A stretch of 64,000 bases of DNA from Gammaproteobacteria bacterium. GTDB taxonomy: Bacteria; Pseudomonadota; Gammaproteobacteria; CBDBNL01; G965229495. Location of the stretch: NCBI GenBank assembly GCA_965229495.1, contig OZ245880.1, positions 2,357,211 through 2,421,210 on the forward strand, read 5' to 3'. Shown piece by piece: positions 23,291 through 54,100 of the stretch; position 1 is the stretch's first letter; each line of letters begins with the position of its first letter. Made by a program: the position numbers and the translations under genes. The notes under the pieces were generated by a model. It made no database searches and was not told where the DNA came from. It saw only the letters and a list, made by a program, of their open reading frames with translations.

Positions 23291-23462
23291 AGGCTCTCCA
23301 TCCAAAGGTTCTCCATCCAACGACCCCACCCACCATCTCTCCACAACCACCACAACCACTGAACCCCCAGCCAACCACAACCACCCACCACAACCACCAC
23401 ACCACCACCAAACCACTAAACCCCCAGCCATCCAAACCATCCAAACCATCCAAAAACCATTC
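23262..23462. repeat. G-depleted C/A-rich low-complexity tract with short tandem repeats
   Basis: TCCATCCAAAGGYTC occurs about 2.5 times and CCATCCAAA 3 times, alongside CCACAACCACCAC-type runs. There is almost no G on the + strand. Confidence 0.8.
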
Positions 23463-26685: not shown

Positions 26686-27103
26686 AGCCGAAGCACTCTT
26701 GAGCAGCATCACCCAGGTCTTAACCGACCTCAAAGCCCAAAACATCAGCACCTACCGCGTCGAGCGCATCACCAGTTGGTTCGACGCCATGATCATCGTC
26801 GGCGCCAGCTCCAAAAGGCAAGCCCAAGCCCTGGCAGAAAACACCATAGCCCGCCTGCGCGACCAAGGCGTGCGCGTTTACAGCGTCGAAGGCCTGGATA
26901 GCGGCGAATGGATACTGCTCGACTTCGCCAGCGTCATCGTCCACATCATGCAGCCCGAAGCCCGCGAACTCTACCGCCTCGAGCAACTCTGGCTGCCGCA
27001 ATTCGGCAGCAGCCCCAGCGAATTCGCCGAAGCCGAAGCCACCGACCCCGCGCTCGCCTCGGCAAATAATCAGAGCCAGGGCAGAGCAGGGCGGATAAGC
27101 TAA
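26675..27103 (+). CDS. rsfS: Ribosomal silencing factor RsfS (iojap family)
   Basis: It starts at the ATG at 26675, inside the track's ORF 26180..27103, preceded by AAGGAG at 26659-26664. The sequence ..FDAMIIVGASSKRQAQALAENT...VEGLDSGEWILLDFASVIVHIMQPEARELYRLEQLW is typical of RsfS. It overlaps the nadD 3' end by 11 nt. Confidence 0.85.
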   Translation: MANEAEALLSSITQVLTDLKAQNISTYRVERITSWFDAMIIVGASSKRQAQALAENTIARLRDQGVRVYSVEGLDSGEWILLDFASVIVHIMQPEARELYRLEQLWLPQFGSSPSEFAEAEATDPALASANNQSQGRAGRIS

Positions 27104-27570: not shown

Positions 27571-28590
27571 CCCCACCCCCTTGCCCTCAGCACGGGCGGA
27601 GCGCCGCCCAGGTGGAGCGCCGAGTTGTACTCGGCAGGAGACGCCCGCATGGGCGTCTCCCCAAAAGCACGGTGCCCTGGGAGCGCCGAGTTGTACTCGG
27701 CAGGAGGCGAGCTTGCGAGCCTCCCCACCACTCCCCGCACACAAGCAGCGAATAAAGCCAATAGCACGGTGCCCTGGGAGCGCGCCCATCTCGCTCGCCG
27801 CATAAAAAGCGCCGCAGGCCATCCATCCGCCAAATAAGCTTCTCTTAGCAGCGGAGCTAACTTGGAGCACCGACTTGCCCTCGACATCGTGGAGCGCCGC
27901 CCAGGCGGAGCGCCGAGTTGTACTCGGCAGGAGGCGAGCTTGCGAGCCTCCCCACCACTCCCCTCACACAAGCAGCGAATAAAGCCAATAGCACGGTGCC
28001 CTGGGAGCGCGCCCATCTCGCTCGCCGTATAAAAAATGAACCCGAAGGGTTCGACATTTCGGCAAATTCGCTCCTACCAGCAGCATCTACAGGTACTGAG
28101 GTAAAGCTAGGTTAAATAAACTCAAAGCACAACATACCCAAGCAGGGCAGGGCACCCCTAGCACCACGCCCACCCCACCCACCATATAAAAACCCAGCCC
28201 ACCAGCGCTCAATCCTCAAGCAAATCAGCCGACTACCAGCAGCGATTTCCTGGGAGCGCGAGCGTCTCGCCCGCTGTATAAAAGCCAGCCACCAGCGCCC
28301 AACCTCCCGCCAACCAAGCCACCTCAGCAGCGAAGCTCGCCCACGGCGGAGCGCCGAGTTGTACTCGGCAGGAGGCGAGCTTGCGAGCCTCCCCACCACT
28401 CCCCTCACACAAGCAGCGAATAAAGCCAATAGCACGGCGCCCCCTGGGAGCGCGCCCGTCTCGCTCGCCGTATAAAAAATGAACCCGAAGGGTTCGACAT
28501 CTGGGCAAATAAGCTGCTCTTAGCAGTTAATCTTGGGATTGGTGGTATCGCCAAGCCGCCCTCGCCAAGACGCAAGCCCGCTCGCCTCCC
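27571..28590. repeat. REP/BIME-like modular repeat array (cluster 2) between rlmH and the giant lipoprotein gene
   Basis: It uses the same module set as cluster 1. H2 copies lie at 27619, 27685, 27912 and 28353. The CACACAAGCAGCGAATAAAGCCAATAGCAC box occurs 3 times. GAACCC-GAA-GGGTTC hairpins lie at 28038-28052 and 28481-28495. A module of about 130 nt (28060-28190) is shared with 21730-21860. Confidence 0.85.
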
Positions 28591-28720
28591 CATCACTTAA
28601 CAAACCACAGATACCCACATACAAGCTCAGCGCGTCAATAAACCACCTTCTGCCAAACCACCTCTCCACTCTCCACTATCAACTATCAACTATCCATTAT
28701 CAATTAACAACCCCACCGCC

Positions 28721-28996
28721 CAACCCCACAAAATTACGCTATACTCACAAAACTAAAAAATTAGTTACTCAGCAACCAGGAATAAATAATAAGGCATTAT
28801 TAAATAGGCATATATCTTATCCTGTTAAGATTTTGAAAAACCTAACAATAATAAGTTTAAGCTATATTCCTTAGCCCAAAATAAAAACTCATAGATAATT
28901 AAAGCGCCACCATCACAAATAATATAAAGCTTACATATGATCAGCCACACCAGCGGCGCACTATTAACCAAAGTCAACGCCATATCAGCAGCGACC
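28721..28996 (+). promoter_or_regulatory. Conserved AT-rich non-coding leader upstream of giant lipoprotein gene 1; its paralogous copy is at 47661-47924
   Basis: The two copies of about 270 nt align with many identities and small indels, including a 2-nt indel that rules out a shared reading frame. The region is far more AT-rich than its surroundings and contains a conserved TATACT and a TTGAAAAACCTAA box. Confidence 0.5.
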
Positions 28997-29035
28997 ATCA
29001 AATCCCCGTAGTAAAACCAAGAATAAACCACACGG

Positions 29036-29112
29036 CATCGTGGAGCGCCGACTTGTAGTCGGCATCGTGGAGCGCCGACTTGCAGTCGGCAGGAGGCGAG
29101 TTCACGAGCCTC
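29036..29112. repeat. REP doublet (H2 twice plus an H3-like hairpin) in the leader of giant lipoprotein gene 1
   Basis: CATCGTGGAGCGCCGACTTGTAGTCGGC is directly followed by CATCGTGGAGCGCCGACTTGCAGTCGGC AGGAGGCGAGTTCACGAGCCTCC. The doublet is absent from the equivalent position upstream of the paralog. Confidence 0.8.
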
Positions 29113-29206
29113 CCCACCACTCCCGTCCACCCAAGCACCTCAACTTAAACCACACAACCTCATCCCCCAAAACACCAACAACTACCAGCGCCGTCCCCCA
29201 CAATCC

Positions 29207-29254
29207 ATGCCCAAACCACTCCTCCTAGCCCTCACCCTCGCCCTCGCCGCCTGC
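29207..29254 (+). other. Lipoprotein signal peptide with lipobox L-A-A-C (Cys16) and Asp at +2
   Basis: MPKPLLLALTLALAAC|DFSSG; the TGC codon is at 29252-29254 and is followed by GAC. Confidence 0.75.
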
Positions 29255-32200
29255 GACTTCTCCAGCGGAGACAGCGACACCTCGCTCTCCAGCGACGCAC
29301 CGCAGCCCAACTCAGTCAGCATCACCGAAACGTCGATCACCGACAACCAAGCCACAGTCAGTTGGAGCGCCAGCGGTCCCGAACCCGCCGAGTATTGGCG
29401 CCTGTATCAAAATAACCTCCTGGTCTGCTCGGCAAATCTCGACATCGACCTCAGCTCCTCCGACGCCAACGGCGACTACCAACAAAGCGCCACCTGCACA
29501 CTAACCCTCGAAGAAGGCGAGAACAGCGTCTACGTCCAGCTCTGCAATTTCTCCGCCAGCGGCTCCAGCACTTGCTCGGCGTCGTCGGTCAAACAAATCT
29601 TCTACGAAGCCGCCGACCCCACTCCCGGTGCCGTCTCTTGGCAAGACCTCCCCAGCAGCACCAGCGCCACCAGCATCAACGTAACCTGGCTGAAAGAGGC
29701 GGGCGGCAACGGCGACTATTGGTTCGTCTACCACAACGAAGCTGAAGCCTGCACTGGCGACCTAAGCTACACCGAAGACTACGTTGCCCAAAGCGCCGAT
29801 TGCATCGTCAATCTTGACGAAGGCGTCAACCAGCTCCAAGCCGAGCTCTGCTACGACCAACCCGCCGGCATCCAAGACCTGTGCACGCAATCCGAAGTCG
29901 CCAGCGTAACCCTGGTCCTTGACCCCGCCAAAGAATTGGCAACGCCCGTGCTCGACGCCCTCGACGATTCCGACCACTACGCCGAAGTCGACATCAACAT
30001 CAATTGGCACAAAGACACCAGCGTCGGCAGCGCCGGCGAAGATTGGTCGCTGTACCGCAACGGCGCCATCGTCTGCGAAGACCTGCTCGCCGCCGACGCC
30101 ACCAGCGCCAGTTGCACAATCCAATTAACCACAGGCGACAACACCCTGCAAATCGAGCTCTGCACCGACGTCGCCACCTATTCCGGCGCCAGTTGCACGC
30201 AATCGAACACGCTCACCGTCGCCGCCCTCGACCCCAACCCCCTCGACCCGGGAACCCCACAAATCACCAACGTCCTCCCCGCCGAAACCTTCGACAGCAC
30301 CCTGGCGTTGAATTGGTCGATCGCCAGCGGCAACGGCGTCCAGCATTGGAGCGTCGACCTGAACGGCGCCGAGCATTGCATCACCAGCAGCCCTAGCGAA
30401 TACTACGAATCCGGCTCCTGCCAACTCAACCTCGCCGTCGGTCTCAACACCATCAGCGTCAGCGGTTGCAATTATGGCTACGCCGACCGCAGCGCCTGCA
30501 GCACCAGCACCGACCTGATCCTCGAGCGCGTCTCGCTCCCGGGCAGCGCCGAGCTCACCTCCAGCTTACCCGCCACCACCTACGAAGCCGAGCACAGCCT
30601 CAGCTGGGTACGTAGCACCGGCGCCAGCGCCGAATACTGGTTCGCCAGCGTTCTAAGCGATTTTCACGACAACCAGTGTAATACCGAGCTCAGCGCGCAA
30701 ACCCCGCAGAGCGATTCCTGCACTATTGAACTCAGCAGCGGTCATAACGAAGTCTACGTCCAAACCTGCGTTTACAACCACAACCGCAGCTCCTCGTACT
30801 GCGCCGAATCCGACAGCCTATTCGCCGAGCTGCTAGCGCCGATCCCCGCCACCCCCGAGCTCAGCACCGAATCGCAAAGCATAGCCGACGACAGCATCGA
30901 GATTAGATGGAGCAAAAGCTCGGGCGCCAACGGCAGCTATTGGGGCGCTATTAACAACGGCGCCGCCACCACTTGCTCCGATCAGCCGGTGATCACCGCT
31001 GGCGACGGCCAATCGGGCTTTTGCGACCTGCCGTTGGTCGTAGGTGAGAACCTGGTCAGCGTTCGCCTCTGCGCTGATAACGTCGCCGGCACCGCCTCCT
31101 GCGCCGAATCCAGCACCATCAGCATCACCCGCCTGGTCGCGTCGCCCGAATTCACCAGCTTATCGTCGGTTGCCGCCGAAGAGAGCAGCACAGCGGTCTT
31201 CTACACCGCAGTCGTCGAAGACAACGACAGCAGCGCCGAGCAAATCAGCTTCGCCCTCAGCGGCGGCGATGATGTCGACTTCTTTCGCCTCGACAGCGCC
31301 AGCGGCGCGCTCGCCTTCCAAGCAGCAGTCGACTACGAAGCACCGCAAGACAGCGACGCCAACAACGTCTACCAACTCGACATCACAGCCACCGACGAAC
31401 TCGGTAACTCGGCGCAACTCGAGCTCGCGGTCAGCCTCAGCAATATCAACGACAACCCCCCAAGCCTCACCACCCCACCGCCAACCCTCGCCACCGCCGA
31501 GAACGACAGCAGCATCATCTACACCTTCACTGCCAGCGACCTCGACGGCGACGCTCTCAGCTACAGCCTCGACGGCGCCGACGCCCAGCACTTCACCCTC
31601 GGCGCCACCAGCGGCGCGCTGCAATTTAATAACGCCCCCGATTACGAAACACCGCTCGACGCCAACCAGGACAACGTCTACGAACTCGCCATCAGCGTCG
31701 CCGACGGCGACTATCAAAGTACCGAACAGCTCAGTATCAGCGTTAGCGATAGCAACGACGAAACCCCCCAAGCCACCAGCGCCTCCTCGATAGCGCTGGC
31801 GCTCGATAGCCTGGTCGTCGGCGCCACCGTCTACACCGTAACCGCCATTGATACCGACGCCGACGATCAAATCACCTACACCCTCGGCGGCGTTGACCAG
31901 CAACACTTCGTCCTCGGCGCCAGCAGCGGCGAACTCGCCTTCAGCCAACTACCGTCGAGCATCGACAATCCGCAGGACGCCGACGGCGACAATATCTACG
32001 AAATCCTAATAACCCTCACCGACCTCGGCGCCAACTCCAGCGATCTCAACCTCAGCGTCAGCGTCGTCGCCATTATCGGCAATGCCCCCGAATTTGCCCA
32101 AGCCACAGCCAGCGTCGACTTCGACGAAAACGCCGTCGGCACCGTCTACACCGCCGTCGCCACCGACGCCGACGGCGACGCCCTCACCTACAGCATCAGC

Positions 32201-35200
32201 GGCGACGACGCCGAGCACTTCGCCATCGACGCCACCAGCGGCGTCCTCGAATTCAACTCAGCCCCCGACCACGAGCAACCCACCGACAGCGGCTTCGACA
32301 ACGTCTACAACCTCATCATCGCCGCCGAAGACCCCCTCGGCAACCAGGCGCAGCAAAGCCTAACAGTATCGGTCAACGATCTCAACGACAACCCCCCACA
32401 ATTCGCTTCCAGCACAGCAGCACTCGACGCCAGCGAAAACACCACCACCATCACCACCATCACCGCCACCGACGCCGACAGCGCCGCCGAACACTCCACC
32501 CTCACTTACAGCCTCAACAGCGGCAGCGACCTCAGCCTCTTCACCATCGACCCCACCAGCGGCGCCCTCAGCTTCAATCAAGCCCCCGACTACGAATCCC
32601 CCCAAGACGCCAACACCGATAACACCTACGAACTCAGCATTACAGCCACCGACAGCCTCTACACCGCCAGCCAAGAACTCACCGTCACAATAACCGACGT
32701 CAACGAAGCCCCCAGCTTCACCGAGACCAGCGTCGCCCTCGCTACCGCCGAAAACAATAGCAGCTTCATTTACACAGTCGACGCCGCCATCGACCCCGAC
32801 CAAGACCAAACACTCTCCTACCAACTCAGCGGCGACGACCAATCAGCCTTCACCCTCGACCCCGCCACCCGCGCCCTCGCCTTCATCACCACCCCCAACT
32901 ACGAAAGCGCCAAAGACCAGGACACCGACAACACCTACCAAATCACCATCACCGCCACCGATGGCGAATACAGCGCCAGCCAAAGCATCGTCATCGCCGT
33001 TAGCGACTACAACGACGAAGCCCCGCAATTCACCAGCTCCAATGTGCAGGCAGTCGACTACACCACAGTCCAAGTCGGCGACATCATCTACACCGCGCAA
33101 GCCACCGACGCCGACGCTGGCGACCAAATCACCTACGCCCTCGGCGGCGCCGATGGCGGCTACTTCACCTTCGATAGCAGCAGCGGCGCGCTCGCCTTCT
33201 ATTACTTGCCGGCATTAGAGGATTTCCCCGAGGGCGGCGGCATCGCTTACGACCTCGCCATCACTGCCACCGACCTCGCCGACAATAAAACCACACTCGA
33301 CCTGGTCGTCAATTTGCTCGACGACACTGGCAGCCCCCCCGAATTCGCCTCAGCCAGCGTCAGCATTGATGTCGACGAAAACAGCCCTGACACTATCTAC
33401 ACCGCGCAAGCCACCGACGTCGACGCGGGCGATACCCTCAGCTACAGCATCTCTGGCACCGATCGCCAACTGTTCAGCATCGACTCCACCAGCGGCGCGC
33501 TCGCCTTCGTCACCCCACCCAATTTCGAGCAACCCACCGACGCCGACGCTGACAACGAGTACCACCTGATCATCACTGCCACCGATTCCCCAGTCGGCAA
33601 CCAAGCCCAGCAAAGCCTCGCCATCACCGTTAACAACATCAACGACAACTCACCGCAATTCGCCCTCAGCAGCACTACCTTCGCCATCCCCGAAAACAGC
33701 ACCGCCATCACCACCATCGCCGCCACTGACGCCGACGCCGACGACCTCACATTCTCCCTAACAAACAGCACCGACTCCTCCCTCTTCACCCTCGACCCCA
33801 CCAACGGCACCCTAAGCTTCACCCAAGCCCCCGACTTTGAGACCCCTCAAGACGCCAACACCGACAACACCTACGAGCTCGAACTCAGCGTCTTCGACGG
33901 CGCCAACACCATCAGCCAAGCCATCACCATCACAGTAAGCAATATCGACGAAGCCCCGAGCTTCGCCGTCACCAGCCAAGACCTATCGATCAACGAAAAC
34001 AGCAACGGCAGCGTCTACCAGGCGCAAGCCACTGACCCCGAGGACGCCCCGCTCGCCTACAGCGCCAGCGGCACCGACGCCGCGCTCTTCACCTTAGATA
34101 GCACCAGCGGCGACCTCGCCTTCATCATCCCACCCAACTTCGAGCAACCAACCGACCAAAACACCGACAACATCTACAACCTCACCCTCACCGCCTCCGA
34201 CGGCGTCAACCAAACCAGCCAAGACCTCGCCATAACAGTCGCCGACGTCAACGAAGCCCCCACCTTCGCCAGCGCCAGCGTCGAGACCAGCAGCGTCGAG
34301 AACAACGCCAACTTTGCCTATAGCGTCGCCGCCGCCAGCGATGTCGACCAGGACCCGCTGACCTACTACCTCGATGGCGCCGATAGCACCGCCTTCGACT
34401 TCGACGCCGGCACTCGCGTCCTGCGCTTCGCCGCCAATCCCGACTATGAAAACCCCGCCGACCAGGACGGCGATAACCTTTACCAATTCAGCGTCGTCGC
34501 TTCCGATGGTGCTCTCGAAGCCAGCCAAGCCATCACCATCACCGTCGTCGACCTCAACGACGAAGCCCCGCAATTCACCAGCCCGAACTCGCAGACAGTC
34601 AACTACACCAGCGCCCAAGTCGGCGCCGTCATCTACACCGCCACCGCCACCGACGCTGATGCCAACGACCAAATCGCCTACGCCCTCAGCGGCGCCGACG
34701 CCAGCGCCTTCAGCTTTAGCACCACCAGCGGCGCGCTCGCCTTCGCCCAATTACCCAGCCTCACCGAGTTGCAAAGCGCTGGCGGCAGCATCGTTTACCA
34801 GTTGACCATCGTCGCCACCGACCTCGGCGCCAACAGCAGCGAGCTCGCCCTCAGCGTCAGCCTGCTCGACGACACTGGCAGCCCCCCCGAATTCGCCCAA
34901 GCCAGCGCCAGCATCGCCGTCGACGAGAACATTGACACCACCATTTACACAGCGCAAGCCACCGACGCCGACGGCGACGCCCTCAGCTACAGCCTCGCCG
35001 GCACCGACGCCCAGCACTTCACCCTCGACGCCACCAGTGGCGCGCTCGCCTTCGTCACCCCACCCAATTTCGAGCAACCAACAGACGCCGACGCTGACAA
35101 CGAGTACCACCTGATCATCACTGCCACCGATTCCCCAGTCGGCAACCAAGCGCAGCAAAGCCTCGCAGTTAGCGTCAACAATCTCAACGACAACGCACCG

Positions 35201-47200: not shown

Positions 47201-47272
47201 ACCACATCCTTCACCACCCTCACCTCCCACCTAATCTACCAACCCCGAAACAACACCTCAACCTCTGAGTAA
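29207..47272 (+). CDS. Giant lipoprotein (6021 aa): ChiN-like x6, cadherin-like x31, Cys-pair Fn3 x about 13, an orphan module, DUF1566/Lcl-C-like domains and a low-complexity tail
   Basis: It is a single ORF in the track with an N-terminal MPKPLLLALTLALAAC lipobox. See the domain sub-features for motif evidence. No Shine-Dalgarno sequence is visible upstream (CCCCCACAATCC ATG). Confidence 0.85.
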   Translation: MPKPLLLALTLALAACDFSSGDSDTSLSSDAPQPNSVSITETSITDNQATVSWSASGPEPAEYWRLYQNNLLVCSANLDIDLSSSDANGDYQQSATCTLTLEEGENSVYVQLCNFSASGSSTCSASSVKQIFYEAADPTPGAVSWQDLPSSTSATSINVTWLKEAGGNGDYWFVYHNEAEACTGDLSYTEDYVAQSADCIVNLDEGVNQLQAELCYDQPAGIQDLCTQSEVASVTLVLDPAKELATPVLDALDDSDHYAEVDININWHKDTSVGSAGEDWSLYRNGAIVCEDLLAADATSASCTIQLTTGDNTLQIELCTDVATYSGASCTQSNTLTVAALDPNPLDPGTPQITNVLPAETFDSTLALNWSIASGNGVQHWSVDLNGAEHCITSSPSEYYESGSCQLNLAVGLNTISVSGCNYGYADRSACSTSTDLILERVSLPGSAELTSSLPATTYEAEHSLSWVRSTGASAEYWFASVLSDFHDNQCNTELSAQTPQSDSCTIELSSGHNEVYVQTCVYNHNRSSSYCAESDSLFAELLAPIPATPELSTESQSIADDSIEIRWSKSSGANGSYWGAINNGAATTCSDQPVITAGDGQSGFCDLPLVVGENLVSVRLCADNVAGTASCAESSTISITRLVASPEFTSLSSVAAEESSTAVFYTAVVEDNDSSAEQISFALSGGDDVDFFRLDSASGALAFQAAVDYEAPQDSDANNVYQLDITATDELGNSAQLELAVSLSNINDNPPSLTTPPPTLATAENDSSIIYTFTASDLDGDALSYSLDGADAQHFTLGATSGALQFNNAPDYETPLDANQDNVYELAISVADGDYQSTEQLSISVSDSNDETPQATSASSIALALDSLVVGATVYTVTAIDTDADDQITYTLGGVDQQHFVLGASSGELAFSQLPSSIDNPQDADGDNIYEILITLTDLGANSSDLNLSVSVVAIIGNAPEFAQATASVDFDENAVGTVYTAVATDADGDALTYSISGDDAEHFAIDATSGVLEFNSAPDHEQPTDSGFDNVYNLIIAAEDPLGNQAQQSLTVSVNDLNDNPPQFASSTAALDASENTTTITTITATDADSAAEHSTLTYSLNSGSDLSLFTIDPTSGALSFNQAPDYESPQDANTDNTYELSITATDSLYTASQELTVTITDVNEAPSFTETSVALATAENNSSFIYTVDAAIDPDQDQTLSYQLSGDDQSAFTLDPATRALAFITTPNYESAKDQDTDNTYQITITATDGEYSASQSIVIAVSDYNDEAPQFTSSNVQAVDYTTVQVGDIIYTAQATDADAGDQITYALGGADGGYFTFDSSSGALAFYYLPALEDFPEGGGIAYDLAITATDLADNKTTLDLVVNLLDDTGSPPEFASASVSIDVDENSPDTIYTAQATDVDAGDTLSYSISGTDRQLFSIDSTSGALAFVTPPNFEQPTDADADNEYHLIITATDSPVGNQAQQSLAITVNNINDNSPQFALSSTTFAIPENSTAITTIAATDADADDLTFSLTNSTDSSLFTLDPTNGTLSFTQAPDFETPQDANTDNTYELELSVFDGANTISQAITITVSNIDEAPSFAVTSQDLSINENSNGSVYQAQATDPEDAPLAYSASGTDAALFTLDSTSGDLAFIIPPNFEQPTDQNTDNIYNLTLTASDGVNQTSQDLAITVADVNEAPTFASASVETSSVENNANFAYSVAAASDVDQDPLTYYLDGADSTAFDFDAGTRVLRFAANPDYENPADQDGDNLYQFSVVASDGALEASQAITITVVDLNDEAPQFTSPNSQTVNYTSAQVGAVIYTATATDADANDQIAYALSGADASAFSFSTTSGALAFAQLPSLTELQSAGGSIVYQLTIVATDLGANSSELALSVSLLDDTGSPPEFAQASASIAVDENIDTTIYTAQATDADGDALSYSLAGTDAQHFTLDATSGALAFVTPPNFEQPTDADADNEYHLIITATDSPVGNQAQQSLAVSVNNLNDNAPQFNLASDAFSVNENSTAVATIAASDPDGDDLTLALIASTDSNYFTLDPTSGALAFTSAPDFENPADDNTDNTYELTLSVFDGVTTISQAITVAVANINEAPSFAAASQDLSLSENSIGSIYQAQATDPEGASLTYSASGTDASLFTLDSSSGDLAFKTEPNFENPLDQDSNNVYELSITAADGANQTSQGITVTVADINEAPIFTNTSVNLDTAENDSSFTHVVDAADDPDQGETLTYQLGGDDAAAFDFDAATRALSFKATPDYESPQDQNSDNTYRLTITAADSQYSTAQTITIAVADLNDEAPQFTSLSSQSVSYTTAKVGDIIYTAQATDSDAGDQVSYTLGGTDSSDFTFNATSGELAFAQLPDLTEFQSAGAGGIAYALTITATDLANNSSALDLTINLVDDTGSAPEFTQASANISVDENVVGVIYQAVASDADSDPVAYSLEGSDAAAFTIDSSSGELSFGSPPDHELPADAGANNVYELTIVATDSPVGNQAQQSLAVTVNNLNDNEPQFALASSAFDVLENSTAVATIAAADADGDDLTFALTNSTDASFFSLDPTSGVLAFTSAPDFENPQDSNADNTYELELSVFDGAHSTNQAITVAVANIDEAPSFAAATQDLSVNENTSGSIYTAQASDPEQAALAYSASGADAGLFTINNTNGDLSFNSSPNFETPLDSDTNNVYQLTITATDGTNQASQAVTVTVADVNEAPIFASASVNLDTDENAASFAHIVDAADDEDQGEQLTYQLGGDDQSAFDFDATTRALSFKQSPDYESPADQDSNNVYQINIVASDSEYDATQAITIAVVDLNDEAPQFTSASSLALDYTSVAVGTTVYTAQATDADANDQITYALSGADASAFSLDNGSGALAFTQAPSLDSPQDADGDNFYQITITATDLNANSTDLALSVNVVDDTGSAPTFDQASASIAVDENVVGAIYTAQATDVDPGDILTYSIAGADSSLFTIGSSNGELTFNTAPDYENPADSGANNTYELSIAATDAIGKQASQSLTITVNNLNDNPPQFALSANSFDVAENSTAVAAIAAADADGDDLTFSLTNSADASFFTLDPTSGALSFTQAPDFENPADDNTDNIYELELSVADGSHTTTQEITITVTNVDEAPAFAATTQDLPINENTSGSFYQAQATDPEQATLTYSASGADASLFTLDSSSGDLGFITPPNYEQPTDQGTDNVYQLDISASDGANQTSQAVTITVADVNEAPSFASASVNIDTDENAASFVHIVDAADDPDQGETLTYQLGGDDAAAFDFDAATRALSFKQSPDYEQPTDQDSNNVYQIDIIASDGEYDTTQSIAIAVTDLNDEAPQFTSASSLALDYTGVVVGAIVYTAQATDADAGDSVVYTLGGADSSAFGFDSSSGALAFVQAPSLETPKDADANNIYQLSISATDLANNRSDLDLSISVVDDTGSAPTFAQASASIAVDENTISTIYTAQATDVDPGDILTYSIDGTDSTLFTIDPSSGDLAFNQAPDYENPADSGQNNTYDLSITATDAIGKQASQSLTITVKNLNDNPPQFALSANSFDVPENTTTITTITATDPDGDDLTFSLTNSTDSNLLTIDPTSGALSFNQAPDFESPADDNDDNTYELELSVADGTHTTTQAITVSVTNVNDVAPSFAAATDSASAPENTSGVVYTASATDIEGDTLTYSLAGTDSSYFTIDPSSGALSLASALDFENPQDQNSNNDYELSITASDGANSASLALTVLIQDLNDNSPAFGSASETIQVPENTSGSIYTASATDLDATDTITYSLSGTDSALLQIDPTSGALSFQQAPDYENPQDQNSNNVYELTITATDTGNNSNQLALTIEILNTSEQPPEITQLIGGDQAIDFTFDDFGTSKQLSIYRFTDDACSTADLASDHTQCYASDDTSGDTARLDFSGALSSADYQVSDSGLRAGQRYYYQIWAAESSSASDIGVWSQRYSAMTWPAADVGTTLGYDASSTGGTQIVLSFVAPSSGDDDYYHFLRHSDPDCASYAAGTALNRADYSDWSALVDPINGGTCSGLTELSLSGTNLHAPSGGASDSHTDSGLAEGTTYYYLLRTVNYSGANGVDFTTRSGASATSNQLQWTTVPPAPAADDLQILSSPAVAADQISIAFASVAGASSYKLVRYIPANCSVADQQISSVEGCSASAGYAEQDFSAAQSSYTDSGLQAGTTYAYQYRALNAAGSSQYSPAVSASTTFDKPTISLASSVSLADANVISVSWSASSGIDSYSILGSSNESCLISATASADPQASAAACEHSINRTATSSATSIDIDQLDDGSALASGSYYYFAAAAVSSSGSSDYSDVASAITAPASPNVISLSPGYRQVEVAWDVPAGSAENVLYRYTDSTCSLSSFPSNCGLDTGSYTFTSSIPNDAYIDDNSGNGLVDNQMYYYALQASNAGGARYTESASVPVVLTAPKTPDSLIASGERLAVQLRWGSSPTDADDGVAGYEILRSSSSTCYGGSISAYADYASCPDAALFLFDYGSGEGQNEYQFSDSDLDPSSGSEPLAGGSTYYYWIRSFYGSPSANDAIYSASTSAPTSATPILPAPANLAVDAEQSASGTSTDISIAWDEVETASGYVLYRTTSADCLTIVNRNTSEAQNDCADYQREELSGSSTTATTHSDLPSDTIYYYYVAAANSAVEGELSSALSTRSATVAPTITSTQTYSNTVVRVEWDASSDYDATYHLYAYSGDSSCNPFTAECPHESLTTFTADGSSDYYNYAQQLEPGTHYNFKMLAITEYEQEDGTEDFVHGAISSAAATATTAANHPTITGHEYVDYDYFDLFVSIEGGLDSVLYWVLYTLDPNCSVNDVIAGQCALGGQLGTAEPASSIRLANYDFGVYYYVLSLNSEDYSLLTPDEDTPPYLVPGRPAQVELSVNATKNSSGNGSDVKIEWQQSSGVDGYVLYRTTSSGCITDSDRSGTNCEDYQRQEISGSSTTSITHSNLPNDTIYHYSVATISNGSEGALSESIGTHTATSAPPIVDVITYNESQIEVTWWATSAFETDYYIYAYSGDASCDPHAEVCPGEKLVSVAFDFSAEYTTVFTGLTPGTRYNFKAYSNVAYNQENGGTDYIVGYISETAKTNYTFANHPTITGHQENDDGDILLEFAIDGGTDDLTYYIFRTTNGDCTISEVVNSESKCTDLGTATATPEQNIIFHKVDDNDYYYHVISANPLGPLAWDDSVAPYYIASYVVVKDIDVEMTHLVAHSNSDFITIDFVAAEPIPADNKWTMRMYPPLIENSEVEEFVLTDEQINGDSALAFQIKPQYYFQPHAFELYASRLDDTDYILLASFIVWDIQPPPLVAVEKNADSNKYSEEKDFDIYILHYHDDFDVSSVVGIETLKADITMIFTDADAVFCRPPYVPIVDMIYGNCPLVRSYSEFDGSELLFNRVAGDTGNQLLHDVVVSSNETFQASQGLFQVYDITFAGTTPIYDDQDDPWSFFMGPYISSFTIDTDFGKYSLDYEEAFSYLSIELAFGDDEMAEFQVYGSSSSNALLPTPTLVLSPALLSQGLSAGSAYNSWDLHLLWEAINGINSYAIHEYSDSDCAYLLSAPELCGNYNLHSSLSPDFSHAFAAADMGSYFYYRLQAYDAAGNSSELGEQIAVHIPQALNDSGVDICVVSDALSGAQDCASGRDANVAASAKVGSGSAGFDFSLLETEADASASSDSHCVHDNTTGLSWSSWSVPADELASAADPETNATRSSATFAELATITLDACGYSDWSLPSIHELLSIADYNQSEAKIDSSFFTDFNSSQPSYWSASGHILDFSSGDISLEANASAAHSVLLVRGDRRWGHDFGAERFQLVEHIDDGNTSIHLVYDNHSQLHYAPCLAGQSYDPVNHSCLGAPTELDYIDSLNAYDSNSTWRQPNIKELIAILDPTHNLLPNPTYFPNPTSTSDPNSSSDSNSTSDSSNDFSSDTVSASTTSSPYPAPIFILTPSSQSSDHITGRQLNPNNQSTTPTTSFTTLTSHLIYQPRNNTSTSE
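29306..31136 (+). other. Six modules of about 95-100 aa, each with four conserved Cys, resembling the chitinase A N-terminal (ChiN, Ig/Fn3-like) domain
   Basis: The recurrent pattern is hxhxW...G....(Y)W.hY.N(G)...C......C.h.L..G.N.h.V.LC.......C..S. Examples: VSWSASGPEPAEYWRLYQNNLLVC...CTLTLEEGENSVYVQLCNFSASGSSTCSAS and ININWHKDTSVGSAGEDWSLYRNGAIVC...CTIQLTTGDNTLQIELC...CTQS. The pattern is compared from memory with Serratia ChiA (VSWNLWNGDTG..VLLNG...GRYQMQVALCNADGCTAS). Confidence 0.5.
31140..40770 (+). repeat. 31 tandem cadherin-like repeats of about 103 aa, organised from about 33320 in a five-repeat super-unit of about 1550 nt
   Basis: Boundary motifs follow the cadherin DxNDNxPxF type: VNDLNDNPPQF, ADVNEAPSF, VDLNDEAPQF, LLDDTGSPPEF. 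Internal motifs include ENxxxxxxIYTAQATDxDxxDxLTYSLxGxDxxxFxLDxxSGxLxF and PDYExPxDxxxDNxYxLxIxAxD. Confidence 0.85.
40780..44870 (+). other. Twelve Fn3-like modules, each carrying a conserved Cys pair in an insertion loop
   Basis: The repeated pattern is hxhxW......(Y)xhYR.....C...(5-25 aa)...C......D.GL..GT.YYY. Examples: YRFTDDACSTADLASDHTQC, VRYIPANCSVADQQISSVEGC, YRTTSADCLTIVNRNTSEAQNDC. Confidence 0.65.
44870..45800 (+). other. AT-rich orphan module of about 310 aa with no motif I recognise
   Basis: The sequence runs ASYVVVKDIDVEMTHLVAHSNSDFITIDF...YDITFAGTTPIYDDQDDPWSFFMGPYISSFTIDTDFGKYSLDYEEAF. Hand-counted 60-nt lines give 27-37% GC here, against about 70% at 46201. Confidence 0.5.
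46136..46955 (+). other. DUF1566 / Lcl C-terminal-like domain plus a second, apparently truncated copy
   Basis: Family-typical motifs: LNDSGVDICV...DCASGRDA, CVHDNTTGLSWS, GYSDWSLPSIHELLSI and YWSAS. The second copy has C..G......C.G.. and STWRQPNIKELIAILDP, then runs directly into low-complexity sequence. Confidence 0.6.
46956..47269 (+). repeat. G-depleted low-complexity tail (Pro/Ser/Thr/Asn-rich) of giant lipoprotein 1
   Basis: THNLLPNPTYFPNPTSTSDPNSSSDSNSTSDSSNDFSSD...TTPTTSFTTLTSHLIYQPRNNTSTSE. The + strand has very few G bases over about 315 nt. Confidence 0.8.
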
Positions 47273-47282
47273 AGCCTCTGAT

Positions 47283-47490
47283 AGCACGCTATCCTGGGAG
47301 CGGCCTGGGAGCGCGAGCGTCTCGCTCGCCGCATAAAAAGTGAGCGCGCCAGCGCTCGACCTTCAGGCAAATAAGCTGCTCTTAGCAGCGGATCCTAGGG
47401 TTGGCTGGTATCGCCGACTTGCACTCGGCATGGGGGCGGCTTGGAGCGCCGACTTGTAGTCGGCAGGAGGCGAGCTTGCGAGCCTCCCCA
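47283..47490. repeat. REP/BIME-like repeat cluster 4, at the junction between the two giant lipoprotein paralogs
   Basis: It contains an H1 hairpin GCGAGCG-TCT-CGCTCGC at 47313-47329, then ATAAAAAG and a GAGCGC-GCCA-GCGCTC hairpin at 47342-47357. H2 copies lie at 47413-47429 (hybrid arms) and 47448-47464, followed by GGAGGCGAGCTTGCGAGCCTCC. Confidence 0.85.
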
Positions 47491-47660
47491 CCACCCAACC
47501 CACCACCTCTTCCTCGCCCTGCCAGGAGCCAAGCCCACCCGCCTCCCCACCACTTCATAAAACCACAGACACACAGATACACACAAATTAACTTATCAAC
47601 ACCACAGACCCTCTGCCAAATCACCTCTCCAACCACCAATTATCCACCCTACACACCCCC

Positions 47661-47924
47661 CAACCGCACAAAATTACGCTATACTCACAAAACTAAAAAA
47701 TTAGTTTCTCAGCAACCAGGAATAAATAAAGGCATTATTAAACAGGCATATATCTTATCCTGCTAAGATTTTGAAAAACCTAATAATAATCTGTTTAAGC
47801 AATATTCCTTATGCCCAAAATAAAAAGCTCAGAAATAATTTAAGCGCCGCCAACACAAACAATATAAAGCTCAGGCACCAGCGGCGCGCCATTAACTAAA
47901 GTCAACGCCATTTCAGCAGCGACC
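47661..47924 (+). promoter_or_regulatory. Paralogous copy of the conserved AT-rich leader, upstream of giant lipoprotein gene 2
   Basis: It aligns with 28721-28996 (CAACCGCACAAAATTACGCTATACTCACAAAACTAAAAAATTAGTT...). Confidence 0.5.
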
Positions 47925-48068
47925 GACACACCTCCACAGTACAACCAACGTGGTGCCGTGTGCGTTTCGCCCGCCGTATAAGCCGTATAAAAAGTAAACC
48001 CAACAGATTCAACATCATTCCCTAAAACACCAACAACCCATCGCTGTTATCCAACACCCCACAATCCC

Positions 48069-48116
48069 ATGCCCAAATTACTCCTGCTTCTCCTCACGCT
48101 CGCTCTCGTCGCCTGC
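48069..48116 (+). other. Lipoprotein signal peptide with lipobox L-V-A-C (Cys16) and Asp at +2
   Basis: The TGC codon at 48114-48116 is followed by GAC. Confidence 0.75.
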
Positions 48117-51100
48117 GACTCCTCCAGCGTAGATACCCCAGTCTCCAGCGACGCACCGCAGCCCAACCCAGTCAGCATCACCGAAACGTCGATCACCGAT
48201 AACCAAGCCACAGTCAGTTGGAGCGCCAGCGGCCCCGAACCCGCCGAATACTGGCGCCTATATCAAAATAACCTCCTGGTCTGCTCGGCAAATCTCGACA
48301 TCGACCTCAGCGCCTCCGACACCAACGGCGACTACCAACAAAGCGACGCCTGCACACTAACCCTCGAAGAAGGCGAGAACAGCGTCTACGTCCAGCTCTG
48401 CAATTTTTTCGCCAGCGGCTCCAGCACCTGCTCGTCGTCGTCGACTGAACAAATCTTCTACGAAGCCGCCGACCCCACTCCCGGTGCCGTCTCTTGGCAA
48501 GACCTCCCCAGCAGCACCAGCGCCACCAGCATCAACGTAACCTGGCTAAAAGAAGCGGGCGGCAACGGCGACTATTGGTTTGTTTACCACAACGACGCCC
48601 AAGCCTGCACTGGCGACCTAAGCTACACCGAAGACTACGTCGCCCAAAGCGCCGATTGCGTCGTCAATCTCGACGAAGGCGTCAACCAGCTCCAAGCCGA
48701 GCTCTGCTACGACCAACCAGCCGGCATCCAAGACCTGTGCACGCAATCCGAAGTCGCCAGCGTAACCCTGGTCCTCGACCCCGCCAAAGAGCTGGCAACC
48801 CCCGTGCTCGACGCCCTCGACGAGTCCGACCACTACGCTGCAGTCGACATCAACATCAATTGGCACAAAGACACCAGCGTCGGCAGCGCCGGCGAAGATT
48901 GGTCGTTGTACAGCAACGGCGCCATCGTCTGCGAAGACCAGCTCGCCGCCGACGCCACCAGCGCCAGTTGCACAATCCAATTAACCACAGGCGACAACAC
49001 CCTACAAATCGTGCTCTGCACCGACGTCGCCACCTATTCCGGCGCCAGTTGTGCGCAATCGAACACGCTCACCGTCGCCGCCCTCGACCCCGACCCCCTC
49101 GACCCAGGAACCCCACAAATCACCAACGTCCTCCCCGCCGAAACCTTCGACAGCACCCTGGCGTTGAATTGGTCGATTGCCAGCGGCAACGGCGTCCAGC
49201 ATTGGAGCGTCGACCTGAACGGCGCCGAGCATTGCATCACCAGCAGCCCCAGCGAATACTACGAATCCGGCTCCTGCCAGCTCAACCTCGCCGTCGGCCT
49301 CAACACCATCAGCGTCAGCGGTTGCAATTATGGCTACGCCGACCGCAGCGCCTGCAGCACCAGCAATGACCTGATACTCGAGCGCATCTCGCTCCCGGGC
49401 AGCGCCGAGCTCACCTCCAGCTTACCGACCACCACCTACGATGCCGAGCACAGCCTCAGCTGGGTGCGTAGCACCGGCGCCAGCGCCGAGTACTGGTTCG
49501 CCAGCGTGCTAAGCGATTTTCACGACAACCAGTGCAATACCGAGCTCAGCGCGCAAACCCCGCAAAGCGATTCCTGCACGATCGAACTCAGCAGCGGTCA
49601 TAACGAAGTCTACGTCCAAACCTGCGTTTACAACCACAACCGCAGCTCCTCGTACTGCGCCGAATCCGACAGCCTATTCGCCGAGCTGCTAGCGCCGATC
49701 CCCACCACCCCCGAGCTCAGCACCGAATCGCAGAGCATAGCCGACGACAGCATCGAGATTAGATGGAGCAAAAGCTCGGGCGCCAACGGCAGCTATTGGG
49801 GCGCTATTAACAACGGCGGCGCCACCACTTGCTCCGATCAGCCAGTGATCACCGCTGGCGACGGCCAATCGGGCTTTTGCGACCTACCGTTGACCGTAGG
49901 CGAGAACCTGGTCAGCGTTCGCCTTTGCGCCGATAACGTCGCCGGCACCGCCTCCTGCGCCGAATCCAGCACCATCAGCATCACCCGCCTGGTCGCCTCT
50001 CCCGAATTCACCAGCTTATCGTCGGTTGCCGCCGAAGAAAACAGCACAGCGGTCTTCTACACCGCAGTTGTCGAAGACAACGACAGCAGCGCCGAGCAAA
50101 TCAGCTTCGCCCTCAGCGGCGGCGAAGATGTCGACTTCTTTCGCCTCGACAGCGCCAGCGGCGCGCTCGCCTTCCAAGCAGCAGTCGACTACGAAGCACC
50201 GCAAGACAGCGACGCCAACAACGTCTACCAACTCGACATCACAGCCACCGACGAACTCGGCAACTCGGCGCAACTCGAGCTCGCGGTCAGCCTCAACAAT
50301 ATCAACGATAACCCACCAGCCCTCACCACCCCACTGCCAACCCTCACCACCGCCGAGAACGACAGCAGCATCATCTACACCTTCACTGCCAGCGACCTCG
50401 ACGGCGACGCTCTCAGCTACAGCCTCGACGGCGCCGACGCCCAGCACTTCACCCTCGGCACCACCAGCGGCGCGCTGCAATTCGACCACGCCCCCGATTA
50501 CGAAACCCCGCTCGACGCCAACCAGGACAACGTCTACGAACTCGCCATCAGCGTCGCCGACGGCGACTATCAAAGTACCGAACAGCTCAGTATCAGCGTT
50601 AGCGATAGCAACGACGAAACCCCGCAAGCCACCAGCGCCTCCTCCATAGCGCTCGCGCTCGATAGCTTAGTCGTCGGCGCCACCGTCTACACCGTAACCG
50701 CCATTGATACCGACGCCGACGACCAAATCACCTACACCCTCGGCGGCGTCGACCAGCAACACTTCGTCCTCGGCGCCAGCAGCGGCGAACTCGCCTTCAG
50801 CCAATTACCGTCGAGCATCGACAATCCCCAGGACGCCGACGGCGACAACATCTATGAAGTAATCATCACCCTCACCGACCTCGGCGCCAATTCCAGCGAT
50901 CTCAACCTCAGCGTCAGCGTCGTCGCCATTATCGGCAATGCCCCCGAATTTGCCCAAGCCACAGCCAGCGTCGACTTCGACGAAAACGCCGTCGGCACCG
51001 TCTACACCGCCAGCGCCACCGACGCCGACGGCGACGCCCTCACCTACAGCATCGCTGGCGACGACGCCGAGCACTTCGCCATCGATGCCGCCAGCGGCGT

Positions 51101-54100
51101 CCTCGCCTTCAACTCAGCCCCCGACCACGAGCAACCCACCGACAGCGGCTTCGACAACGTCTACAACCTCATCATCGCCGCCGAAGACCCCCTCGGCAAC
51201 CAGGCGCAGCAAAGCCTAACAGTATCGGTCAACGACCTCAACGACAACCCCCCACAATTCGCCGCCAGTACAGCGGCACTCGACGCCAGCGAAAACACCA
51301 CCACCATCACCACCATCACCGCCACCGACGCCGACAGCGCCGCCGAACACGCCACCCTAACTTACAGCCTCGACAGCGGCAGCGACCTCAGCCTCTTCAC
51401 CATCGACGCTGCTAACGGCGCCCTAAGCTTCAACTCAGCCCCCGACTACGAACACCCGCACGATAGCGACCTCGACAACATCTATAACGTCAGCATCGTC
51501 GCCACCGACGGCGAGTACAGCGCCAGCCTTGGCGTCAGCGTCGTCGTCGAAGATAGCAACGACGAAGCCCCACAATTCACCAGCGCCGCCCTGGTACCGC
51601 TCGATTACAGCACCATCACCCTCGACGCCACCATCTACACCGCGACCACCAGCGACGCCGACCGCAACGACCTCATCAGCTACAGCCTCGCCACCAGCAG
51701 CGATACCGAGCACTTCAGCCTCAGCGCCAGCGGCGCGCTCGCCTTCGTCCAGCAGCCCAGCCTCGATAACCCGCAAGACGCCGACGCCGACAACGAATAC
51801 CAAATCACCATCGTCGCCACCGACCTCGGCGACAACAACAGCAGCCTCGAGCTCGCCGTCCGAGTAGTCGACGACCTCGGCAACGCCCCCGAATTCGCCA
51901 GCGCCAGCGCCAGCCTCAGCGTCGACGAAAACAACGCCAGCAGCATCTACTTCGCTCAAGCCACCGACGCCGACGGCGATACCCTGACTTACAGCATCAA
52001 CGGCGTCGATTCACACCTCTTCACCCTCGACCCCGCCAGCGGCGCCCTGAGCTTTAACCAAGCACCCGACTACGAGCAACCCACCGACAGCGGCGCCGAT
52101 AACACCTACGACCTCACCATCGCCGCCGAAGACCCCCTCGGCAACCGAGCCCAACAAAGCCTCGCCATCACAGTCAACAACCTCAACGACAACGACCCGC
52201 AATTCACCCTCAGCTCCAGCACCTTCGCCATCCCCGAAAACACCACCGCCATCACCACCATCACCGCCACCGACGCCGACCACGCCACCGAAGCCACCGA
52301 AGCCCTCACCTACACCCTCACCACCACCACCGACTCCCCCCTCTTCACCCTCGACCCCGCCAGCGGCGCCCTAAGCTTCATCTCAGCCCCCGATCACGAA
52401 GCCCCCCAAGACGCAGACACCGACAACACCTACGACCTCACCCTCAGCGTCTCCGACGGCGCCAACGCCACCAGCCAAGCCATCAGCGTAGCAGTTACCA
52501 ACGTCAACGAAGCCCCGACCTTCGCCGCCGCCAGCATCGATCTGGAGATTGACGAGAGCAGCAGCGGCGTCATCTATAGCTTCGCCGCCAGCGACCTCGA
52601 CGGCGACAGCCTCAGCTACAGCCTCGACGGCGCCGACGCCCAGCACTTCGCCATCGACTCCGCCAGCGGCGCCCTAAGCTTCCAGCAAGCCGCCGACTTC
52701 GAGTCCCCGCGCGACGCCGACGGCGACAGCGTCTACACCTTCAGCGTCGTCGCCGCCGATAGCGATTACAGCGCCAGCCAGGAAGTCAACCTCAGCGTCG
52801 CCGATAGCAACGACGAGGCGCCGCAAATCACCAGCGGCACCAGCGTCGCCGTCGATTACAGCGTCATCGTCCTCGGCGCCACCATTTACGCCGCCACTGC
52901 CACCGACGCCGATGCCAACGACCAAATCGCCTACAGCCTCGACGGCGTCGACGCCGAGCATTTCTCTATCAATATCAGCAATGGCGGCCTCAGCTTCGCG
53001 CAGCAGCCGAGCTTGGATGCGCCCGTAGACGCCGACGGCGACAATCAATACCAAATCGCCATCGTCGCCACCGACCTCGCCGCCAACAGCAGCAGCCTTG
53101 AGCTAACGGTCAACGTAATCGACGACATCGGCAGCCCGCCGCAATTCGCCACCGATACCGCCGCTGCCAGCTTCGCCGAGAACGGCGTCGGCATCGTCTA
53201 CACCGCGCAAGCCACCGACGTCGATGGCGACGTCCTCACCTACAGCATCGCCGGCACCGACGCCGCGCACTTCGCCATCAACGCCGCCAGCGGCGTAATC
53301 ACCTTCAACATAGCCCCCAACTTTGAGGCCCCGCTCGATAGCGGCTTCGATAATAACTACGAGCTCATCGTCGGCGCCCAGGATCCGGTCGGCAACCAGG
53401 GCCAGCAAAGCCTCACGGTCGCGGTGAGCAATGTCAACGACAACGACCCAGCCTTCGCCGAGGCCACCATTAGCACCACGGTCGCCGAGAACTCCCTCGC
53501 CGTCGCCAGCACCAGCGCCAGCGACGCCGACGGCGACGACCTCACTTACGCCCTCGCCACCAGTGCCGACGCCGCGCACTTCACCATCGACCCCAGCAGC
53601 GGCGTTATCGTCTTCAATTCAGAGCCCGACTACGAAGAGCCCCAGGATAGCGACGGCAACAATGTCTACGAGTTCAGCGTCATAGCCAGCGACGGCACTT
53701 ACAGCGGCGCCCAGGATTTCGCCGTTGCCATTGGCGATCTTAACGACGAAGCCCCGCAATTCACCAGCGCCACGTCCATCGCCGTCGAATACGATAGCGT
53801 CATCGTCGGCTTCTCCAGCGTCATCCTCGGCGCCGCCGTCTACACCGCGCAGACCGCCGACGCCGACGCCGGCGACCAAGTCGCCTACAGCCTCGCCGGC
53901 GCCGACGCCGGGCATTTCAATATAGACGCGACTAGCGGCGCGCTCGCCTTCAGCGCATCGCCCAGTTTAGAGAGCCCGCAAGACGCCGACGGCGACAACG
54001 AATACCAGGTCAGCATCGTTGCTACCGACCTCGCCGCCAACAGCAGCAGCTTGGATTTGAGCGTCCACGTCGCCGACGACATCGGCAGCCCGCCGGCCTT

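Follow-up and report, generated by a model that had tools for sequence, protein, structure and literature searches.

Probable Gene Conversion Between Two Old Tandem Genes for Giant Cadherin-Stalk Proteins in a Gammaproteobacterial Genome

Results

Two Tandem Genes with Near-Identical Starts

The stretch of DNA analyzed in this study, hereafter the window, spans 64,000 nt of contig OZ245880.1 from an uncultured gammaproteobacterium, and all coordinates given below are window positions. Its list of open reading frames (ORFs) is dominated by three very long ones on the + strand, p1, p2 and p3. The second and third of them, gene 2 (p2; 29207-47272; 6,021 aa) and gene 3 (p3; 48069-64000; >5,310 aa, running off the window end), are the subject of this report. 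They are adjacent on the same strand and 796 bp apart (i.e., direct tandem copies), and they are probably two old paralogues whose 5' ends have been kept alike by gene conversion.

BLAST aligned 29196-32672 with 48057-51528 at 94.9% identity over 3,482 bp. Inside these limits lies a gap-free core, hereafter the homogenized block, whose copy 1 (29286-32552, + strand) and copy 2 (48142-51408, + strand) have 3,267 bp each, 128 of them mismatched, for an identity of 96.1%. The block encodes the end of the anchor region, six ChiN-like modules, the cadherin domains C1-C4 and the first ~18 codons of C5. The offset between the copies, which is 18,861-18,862 at the start codon, becomes 18,856 past a 6-bp (2-codon) indel located just after the lipobox. 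At its 3' side the block breaks off ~18 codons inside cadherin domain 5, where the identity drops from ~96% through 88 and 69 to 50% between 32486 and 32700 and collapses within ~150 bp. An earlier note on this DNA had described the two blocks as matching almost base for base, with an offset of 18862 that shrank to 18856 through a 2-codon indel. Its coordinates and offsets hold and the alignment confirmed the indel, while the 128 mismatches render its wording slightly generous. The leader, lipid anchor signal, six ChiN-like modules and partial cadherin stalk that were said to be shared are indeed common to both genes, with 4.2 cadherins in common.

Within the block (29288-32485), the synonymous divergence (dS) is 0.113 and the nonsynonymous divergence (dN) 0.019; the resulting omega of 0.17 indicates purifying selection. 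Outside the block, the two stalks are mostly 75-85% identical and at shifted registers, with the best inter-gene diagonals at offsets of 19,204, 20,752 and 22,300. The diagonals are shifted because the stalk is built from super-repeats of five cadherins. For most of the best-matching cadherin pairs dS is 0.3-0.45, which is no lower than the values found between super-repeats inside one gene, and a low-dS partner in p3 was found for only ~3-5 of the 27 non-block cadherins of p2. The tips of the two proteins are unrelated, and the different distal ends that the earlier note had listed were confirmed, i.e., fibronectin type III (Fn3) domains, an extra module and Lcl_C (DUF1566) in p2 versus additional cadherins and ChiN-GH18 (GH, glycoside hydrolase family) in p3. 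The part of the genes downstream of the block, which it had called collinear but diverged, has diverged, but its shifted diagonals are not those of simple collinearity.

These values bear on the origin that had been proposed for the pair, namely that unequal crossing-over between arrays of repetitive extragenic palindromic (REP) elements had recently duplicated the whole 18.9-kb unit in tandem, after which the stalk would have rapidly diverged and been reshuffled and the distal end replaced in one copy. Uniform neutral divergence over a duplicated unit was not found: the contrast between a dS of 0.11 in the block and 0.3-0.45 in most of the stalk, as well as the scarcity of low-dS cadherin partners, argues against such an event. 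Nor was a single ancestral copy found in earlier-diverged relatives, in which each type has its own orthologues. The proposal was not borne out in that only 3.3 kb are near-identical, the orthologues are separate and old, and dS is uneven. The points that speak for it come from the REP elements and are considered with them below.

Orthologues and a Switch of Phylogenetic Signal

Every family contig that was looked up belongs to a single ENA metagenome assembly (ERZ25074195), which is independent of that of the window and for whose accession a literature search found no paper. This assembly contains full-length, collinear orthologues of both genes: P0125 (6,049 aa) is 85% identical to p2 over 6,021 aa, and P0124 (5,952 aa) is 87% identical to p3 over 5,310 aa. 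A further p2-type gene, represented by P0126 and the next ORF in contig L055, stands alone in another genomic context, and L058B is a further p3-type gene. Just past the block (aa 1116-1250), p2, P0125 and P0126 are 76-87% identical to each other, and p3, P0124 and L058B are 85-90% identical, while the identity between the two groups is 41-48%. Given these two deep groups and the separate orthologues, the two gene types must be far older than the 4% divergence of their block, which is difficult to reconcile with a recent duplication of the whole unit.

The separate orthologues also bear on the question of whether the pair could be an assembly artefact, in which one gene, or two alleles or strains, had been mis-joined as tandem copies. 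Long near-identical repeats and arrays are hard to assemble. The two copies nevertheless differ at 128 of 3,267 positions, by the 2-codon indel and in their leaders, stalks and tips. In addition, the orthologues in the independent assembly carry the same type-specific N-terminal residues, and tandem clusters of family members recur on other contigs. An artefact is thus extremely improbable, and this explanation was rejected.

In the head and C1-C4, p2, p3, P0124 and P0125 are mutually 88-96% alike, and the other two sequences are equidistant from both types (P0126, 78-79% in the head and 84-85% in C1-C4; L058B, 74-75% and 83%, respectively). The cadherins C1-C4 of p2 have more in common with those of p3 (96%) and P0124 (93%) than with those of the p2 orthologue P0125 (88%). 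Over the first 100 aa, p2 is 99% identical to P0125 and p3 98% identical to P0124, with 88% identity between p2 and p3. The four-taxon site patterns reflect the same change. Thirteen sites in aa 1-180 support orthology and none supports concerted evolution, while in aa 183-1095 only 2 sites support orthology and 16 group the paralogues by genome (Fisher p = 5e-7 for the switch). The phylogenetic signal along the gene is therefore that of orthology in aa 1-180 and after aa 1116, and that of concerted evolution between them. A three-way comparison of DNA that included L055 gave a corresponding picture: across the leader and the initial ~150 nt, p2 resembles L055 (0.88-0.95) more than p3 (0.70-0.88), the informative sites in 29751-32550 are symmetric (43 vs. 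49), and after 32550 the identity is 0.94 for p2/L055 and 0.60 for p2/p3.

High-identity patches, 150-370 bp in length, stand out from the 75-85% background of the stalk. In patch 1, 36950-37318 of gene 2 and 56154-56522 of gene 3 (+ strand) are ~98% identical, and in patch 2, 39197-39542 and 58401-58746 (+ strand) are 99.4% identical, both at an offset of 19,204; further patches of this kind exist. Both copies of patch 1 resemble P0125 (83-84%) and not P0124 (72-74%), which suggests a transfer from p2 to p3. Both copies of patch 2 resemble P0124 (90-92%) and not P0125 (75-76%), which suggests a transfer in the opposite direction, from p3 to p2.

We also considered whether the head and 4.2 cadherins could have been grafted only once, in an old chimeric event that preceded the split from the genome of P0124 and P0125, with all later similarity due to purifying selection alone. 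The P0124/P0125 pair has the 3' edge of the block at the same place (identity falling from 0.89 through 0.67 to 0.34 at aa 1090-1200), which implies that this edge is old, and the fairly even dS and the omega of the block are what such a graft would leave. It would not, however, explain why 16 sites against 2 group the paralogues by genome in aa 183-1095, or why C1-C4 of p2 are closer to p3 and P0124 than to P0125. Moreover, the stalk patches, at 98-99.4% identity, arose later than the block and are unlike the orthologues, and thus exchange continued after the split. A single graft is improbable, and a version of it without further conversion was rejected. The later exchanges are restricted to the sole long, uniquely alignable homology.

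REP Elements and Leader Regions

Pattern searches of the window revealed two kinds of GC-rich hairpin repeats, REP-A (14 copies) and REP-B (9 copies). The REP-A hairpin has the sequence GGAGCGCCGAsTTGyAsTCGGCA plus GGAGGCGAGCTTGCGAGCCTCC, and GCTGCTCTTAGCAG denotes a form of REP-B. All 23 copies are + oriented and confined to intergenic regions. They fill 20295-21840, 27571-28560 and 47283-47495 as well as part of the p2 leader (29035-29120), and REP clusters follow every long gene in the window. The hairpins are predicted by folding, with modest z-scores. These units are short, repeated, extragenic imperfect palindromes, as REP elements are; the occurrence in both orientations that is typical of bacterial interspersed mosaic elements (BIMEs) was not seen in the window, where every copy is + oriented. 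The REP array at 27571-28560 (+ strand), downstream of rlmH and upstream of gene 2, consists of REP-A hairpins and composite REP-B units, and the repeats inside it are 98-100% identical. Each REP-B unit is a mosaic built from interchangeable hairpin sub-modules, and only on the minus strand does it resemble an intrinsic terminator, with a hairpin followed by a run of T. Diverged REP copies are also found in the related contigs L001, L003, L050, L055 and L056.

The locus-specific homology between the two genes starts in the REP-B unit at 28444-28526 (+ strand), whose 3' hairpin contains a 23-mer at 28504-28526. An exact match to this 23-mer, GGCAAATAAGCTGCTCTTAGCAG, is found at two places only, 28504 and 47366; the window has five more copies with 2-3 mismatches, and shuffled sequences are expected to contain 0. 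In an alignment of ten REP-B units, the middle hairpin is not the same at 28444 as at 47305, but no other unit has the 3' hairpin variant and downstream tail that these two have in common. Therefore, the locus-specific homology begins inside a REP unit, as the earlier note had claimed, with unique collinear similarity from ~28503/47365 onward. Its description of the junction (47283-47490) as a REP cluster was equally accurate: the cluster at the gene 2/gene 3 junction (47283-47495, + strand) contains a REP-B unit at 47305-47388 and REP-A units at 47408-47494.

These features are those that the REP-mediated duplication of the whole unit, introduced above, would lead one to expect. The genes are adjacent and on the same strand, the offset is 18,862 at the REP 23-mer and at the start codon alike, the homology starts inside REP-B, the left edge and the junction each have a REP cluster, and the syntenic post-rlmH loci of relatives lack the pair. 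Two details of the REP elements, however, fit it less well. The 5' half of the junction REP (47304-47377) is 93% identical to 20756-20829 and just 81% identical to 28443-28552, i.e., nearer to the REP at 20756 than to that upstream of gene 2, and REP-A and REP-B follow each other in opposite order at the two loci. Taken with the uneven divergence and the separate full-length orthologues, they make a recent duplication of the 18.9-kb unit highly improbable. It is possible that the ancestral pair was born by REP-mediated unequal crossing-over.

The leader of gene 2 (28560-29206, + strand) has an AT-rich conserved core at 28720-28990 (GC 0.33) and two REP-A at 29035-29120, and that of gene 3 (47496-48068, + strand) has its core at 47660-47920 (GC 0.36) and a degenerate REP-B-like remnant at ~47950-48015. 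The two cores are 87% identical, and the REP insertions that flank them differ. Upstream of the core, at 28503-28720, the locus-specific homology is ~75-80% with indels. Another match to the core of the gene 2 leader, with 80% identity over 476 bp, lies in the leader of the L055 p2-type gene, where REP-A occupies the same place. A promoter scan of both leaders revealed nothing convincing, and an Rfam search of the whole window found no family, the REP units and the AT-rich leader matching no curated RNA. Another repeated element of ~150 bp (AGAGTTTTGCATAACTTGAGACCGCTTGCAAAAAA … CAGCAAAGCGCAGTTTATTCAATAG) is found upstream of family genes in L001 (9700-9990) and L002 (9300-10050), with three copies in the latter.

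Predicted Domains of p2 and p3

Both proteins begin with a signal peptide that contains a lipobox of the pattern [LVI][ASTVI][GAS]C, which is MPKPLLLALTLALAAC in p2 and MPKLLLLLLTLALVAC in p3, each followed by Asp (LAAC-D and LVAC-D, respectively). Cys16 and Asp17 are invariant in five aligned family heads. On the basis of these sequences, p2 and p3 are predicted to be lipoproteins that are lipid-anchored at the membrane. In Escherichia coli, Asp right after the lipidated Cys is a signal for inner-membrane retention (Lol avoidance), and it occurs as well in pullulanase, a type II-secreted lipoprotein. Asp17 may thus bear on the routing of these proteins.

In p2, the six ChiN-like modules of Ig type, with ~100 aa each (29306-31222, + strand), are followed, according to a parse with a cadherin hidden Markov model (HMM), by 31 cadherin domains (31235-40834, + strand). 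Then come an Fn3-like array (40835-44881, + strand), a low-GC module without family match (44882-46135, aa 5226-5643, + strand), two Lcl_C/DUF1566 domains identified with Pfam (46322-46996, + strand) and a C-terminal tail rich in Ser, Thr and Pro on the same strand. The low-GC module (GC 0.47 vs. ~0.61 around it) is 90% conserved in P0125 and present in no other fetched protein. A type I-secreted adhesin with repeats in toxin (RTX) was considered for p2 and rejected, as a lipoprotein signal peptide is present and no RTX repeat (HemolysinCabind) was found in a Pfam scan of the C-terminal third of p2.

In p3, the lipoprotein signal and the six ChiN-like modules (from 48069, + strand) are followed by 41 cadherin domains from the same HMM parse (50091-62882, + strand), a C-terminal ChiN-like module (62859-63158, + strand) and a GH18 domain that starts at ~63342 on the + strand and is cut by the window end (Pfam Glyco_hydro_18, E 3.4e-27). 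The catalytic motif of the latter, DCIDIDWEF (63786-63812, + strand), has DxxDxDxE intact.

Each head module contains four conserved cysteines. In a comparison with the Pfam family ChitinaseA_N (PF08329), module 2 alone matched (E 0.002; 18.2 bits, which is under the 21.2 cut-off). A profile built from seven ChiN-like modules had no significant match among the PDB sequences and did not find ChiA, its best hit being a domain associated with a chitin-active lytic polysaccharide monooxygenase (E 0.05). An AlphaFold model derived from the seven modules (predicted local distance difference test score, 89.5) had its best PDB matches in the chitinases A of Serratia marcescens and Vibrio (E 4e-4; template-modeling score, 0.62-0.64).

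A Family with Varied Stalks and Ends

When 1.84 billion representative proteins were searched exhaustively with an HMM, the complete six-module head turned up in about ten clusters, each of them recorded from ENA only. A word-indexed protein search with the head returned 3 fragments only, and scans of genome and metagenome contigs with the head alignment found no relatives, the back-translated patterns being too specific. The protein family is apparently undescribed and rare. Its members have the same anchor and six modules, joined to stalks of 3 to more than 41 cadherins and to varied ends. The commonest end is GH18-GH19, found in P0124 (where a complete GH18 is followed by GH19), P0129-P0133 and L001. 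Others are PKD-Fn3-Lcl_C (P0127 and L003) and a PKD array with a beta-propeller (P0128). The notion of a modular family with exchangeable tips is thus supported, given that the same N-terminal part occurs with three kinds of ends. The head sequences group by lineage and not by tip.

Tandem clusters of family members are found on several contigs: L057 contains a GH type, an Lcl type and a GH type of 6,445 aa, L058 two GH types, and L003 a GH type followed by an Lcl type that is disrupted by an insertion sequence (IS). The nucleotide identity between the heads of tandem neighbors is 76% in L058, 87% in L057 and 96% in the pair described here, which indicates that tandem family members can be old and that the degree of homogenization varies. 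In close relatives (RlmH 97% and ProA 76-97% identical), the loci after rlmH do not contain the pair, and hence the position of these genes is not conserved. Family members in related contigs are often broken, for example by an in-frame stop in L001 (13360-13823), a frameshift in L055 (17884-18811) and, in L003 (8199-10046), an IS with a DDE transposase between head modules 4 and 5. The related contigs are also rich in IS and PDDEXK/AAA-ATPase genes, and L058 encodes a group II intron reverse transcriptase.

Neighboring Genes and Base Composition

The first long ORF, p1 (3-20294, + strand; >6,763 aa), has its start cut by the window edge and is separated from p2 by housekeeping genes, i.e., a prmC-like gene on the minus strand, a gene for a solute-binding protein, proA, nadD, rsfS and rlmH. 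The first ~5,500 aa of p1 have no Pfam match and, by BLASTP, no internal repeats, and its first 12 kb have a lower GC content of 43-50%. Its C-terminal end consists of a PQQ-type beta-propeller and PKD domains and matches the corresponding end of P0128 at 42.5% identity over 764 aa; P0128 itself has a ChiN-like head and a cadherin stalk. This resemblance points to a third type of tip that is common to different stalks.

The closest named relatives of ProA, from Thalassolituus and Venatoribacter, are 53-56% identical. An rlmH search of genome contigs found relatives at 25-45% identity only, which is at chance level, and no close representative of the species there. A look-up of the exact RlmH sequence of the window found no record. 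The longest rsfS-containing ORF (26180-27103) has 307 aa, of which only residues 176-271 match RsfS, and relatives have 129-143 aa; the long N-terminal extension, which overlaps nadD, is probably not translated. A 262-bp unit is present in 1.9 copies at 95% identity at 22788-23290 and overlaps the prmC-like gene (21927-22973, minus strand) at its 5' end; the region around the unit (22123-23454) is rich in short C-rich tandem repeats.

The + strand of the whole window has a GC skew of -0.25 and an AT skew of +0.16, an extreme and uniform strand asymmetry. From ~12 kb on, the GC skew in 2-kb windows is ~-0.14 to -0.45 and the AT skew near 0 to +0.36. The skew extends to non-coding stretches and housekeeping genes, and related contigs are far less skewed (-0.10 to +0.03).

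Discussion

Concerted Evolution of an Old Pair

Of the explanations considered here, concerted evolution by interlocus gene conversion between two old tandem paralogues is the one that we judge likely to best explain the pair. Repeated non-reciprocal homologous recombination would have overwritten a coding tract of ~3.3 kb that starts soon after the signal peptide and ends ~18 codons inside cadherin 5. Conversion would also have copied the patches of 150-370 bp, in either direction, between stalk repeats that are not in register. The exchange could proceed by RecA-type recombination between direct repeats. It would have been mostly conversion without crossover; with a crossover, 18.9 kb would be lost and the head of p2 joined to the stalk of p3. 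The persistence of both complete genes may be due to the loss of one stalk and tip that any crossover between the blocks would entail.

Several points weigh against this explanation. The dS along the block is fairly even, at 0.06-0.18, and a single event would also fit it. The four-taxon test was made at the protein level, with P0124 and P0125 as proteins; these two lie on different contigs (635,861 and 290,820 bp, respectively) and may come from different genomes or be non-adjacent. The homology upstream of the genes reaches the REP unit at the same offset as the start codon (18,862), as would be expected if the unit first duplicated had begun in a REP. It should also be noted that the recombination itself is read from sequence comparison and the functions of the proteins from their domains alone.

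The shared module and leader could give both proteins common regulation, export and lipid anchoring. The cadherin array would act as a long spacer and the C-terminal ends would do the work, which is predicted to be chitin hydrolysis in p3 and binding in p2. A cadherin domain measures ~4.5 nm in length. The stalks would accordingly be ~140-185 nm long, with p3 as a putative cell-tethered chitinase and p2 as a putative adhesin or lectin.

A broader idea is that of a portable cassette for anchoring and regulation, made up of the leader and lipobox, the six ChiN-like modules and the first four cadherins, that would be kept identical across giant genes, while in-frame recombination between cadherins would swap stalk lengths and ends, with REP units marking its edge. 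We regard this idea as speculative and rather unlikely to hold. If true, the cassette would form a natural system for the combinatorial display of enzymes and binders that are tethered to the cell.

The pair provides a clean and well-delimited bacterial case of concerted evolution between two 18-kb genes, in which the tract edges and donor directions can be read from the sequence. The mechanism is ordinary, and the protein family appears to be undescribed: a double chitinase or a lectin-like domain is carried on a stalk of up to 41 cadherins with an N-terminal lipid tether. The family suggests how uncultured marine-type gammaproteobacteria may keep chitin-degrading enzymes away from the cell and re-use one anchoring module. 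For annotation, the lesson is that near-identical gene starts can mask old, functionally distinct paralogues and break assemblies.

Comparison with Known Systems

The closest parallels for the recombination are the babA/babB/babC chimeras of Helicobacter pylori (PMC4552749) and the ectopic recombination among paralogues of the yeast FLO adhesin genes (PMC3512402). In these systems, as in the pair described here, non-reciprocal recombination of paralogous surface genes homogenizes a 5' segment and generates chimeras, the ligand-specific part stays distinct, and repeats inside the genes serve as substrate. The differences are that the genes studied here are 18 kb long and directly in tandem, that the exchange comprises a tract of ~3.3 kb plus out-of-register cadherin patches, and that no phase-variable repeat is transferred. 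The REP-A and REP-B units resemble REP/BIME elements in being short, GC-rich extragenic palindromes that are clustered after genes, with one at the edge of the shared segment. They differ in that all 23 copies point the same way and are composite mosaic units, and no recombination junction could be shown.

In size, p2 and p3 resemble the type I-secreted, giant repetitive ice-binding RTX adhesin of Marinomonas primoryensis (PMC3492233), with which they share the megadalton range, a long extender of Ca2+-type Ig-like repeats and distal ligand-binding modules. In contrast to that adhesin, p2 and p3 start with a lipoprotein signal, no RTX repeats were found in the Pfam scan of p2, and the polarity is reversed, with an N-terminal anchor and a C-terminal working end.

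Chitinase A of Serratia marcescens and Vibrio harveyi is comparable to the end of p3, in that a ChiN-like module precedes a GH18 domain with an intact DxxDxDxE motif, and the model of the head module is structurally nearest to ChiA entries. Unlike in chitinase A, the head modules score below the PF08329 cut-off (18.2 vs. 21.2 bits), have four conserved cysteines, occur six in tandem and lie far from the catalytic domain.

In design, the nearest described proteins are the lipobox enzymes of Saccharophagus degradans, such as Lam81A (LPB/CAD/GH81/FN3/FN3), and its lipobox chitinase (PMC2386152). They also combine a lipobox signal, cadherin-like domains and a glycoside hydrolase in one polypeptide, for which surface tethering has been proposed. 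The S. degradans proteins are ~1,000-1,300 aa long and have one or few cadherin-like modules, whereas those described here have 31-41 cadherins, six ChiN-like modules at the anchored end, a double chitinase of GH18 and GH19 at the distal one, and sister genes with non-enzymatic ends.

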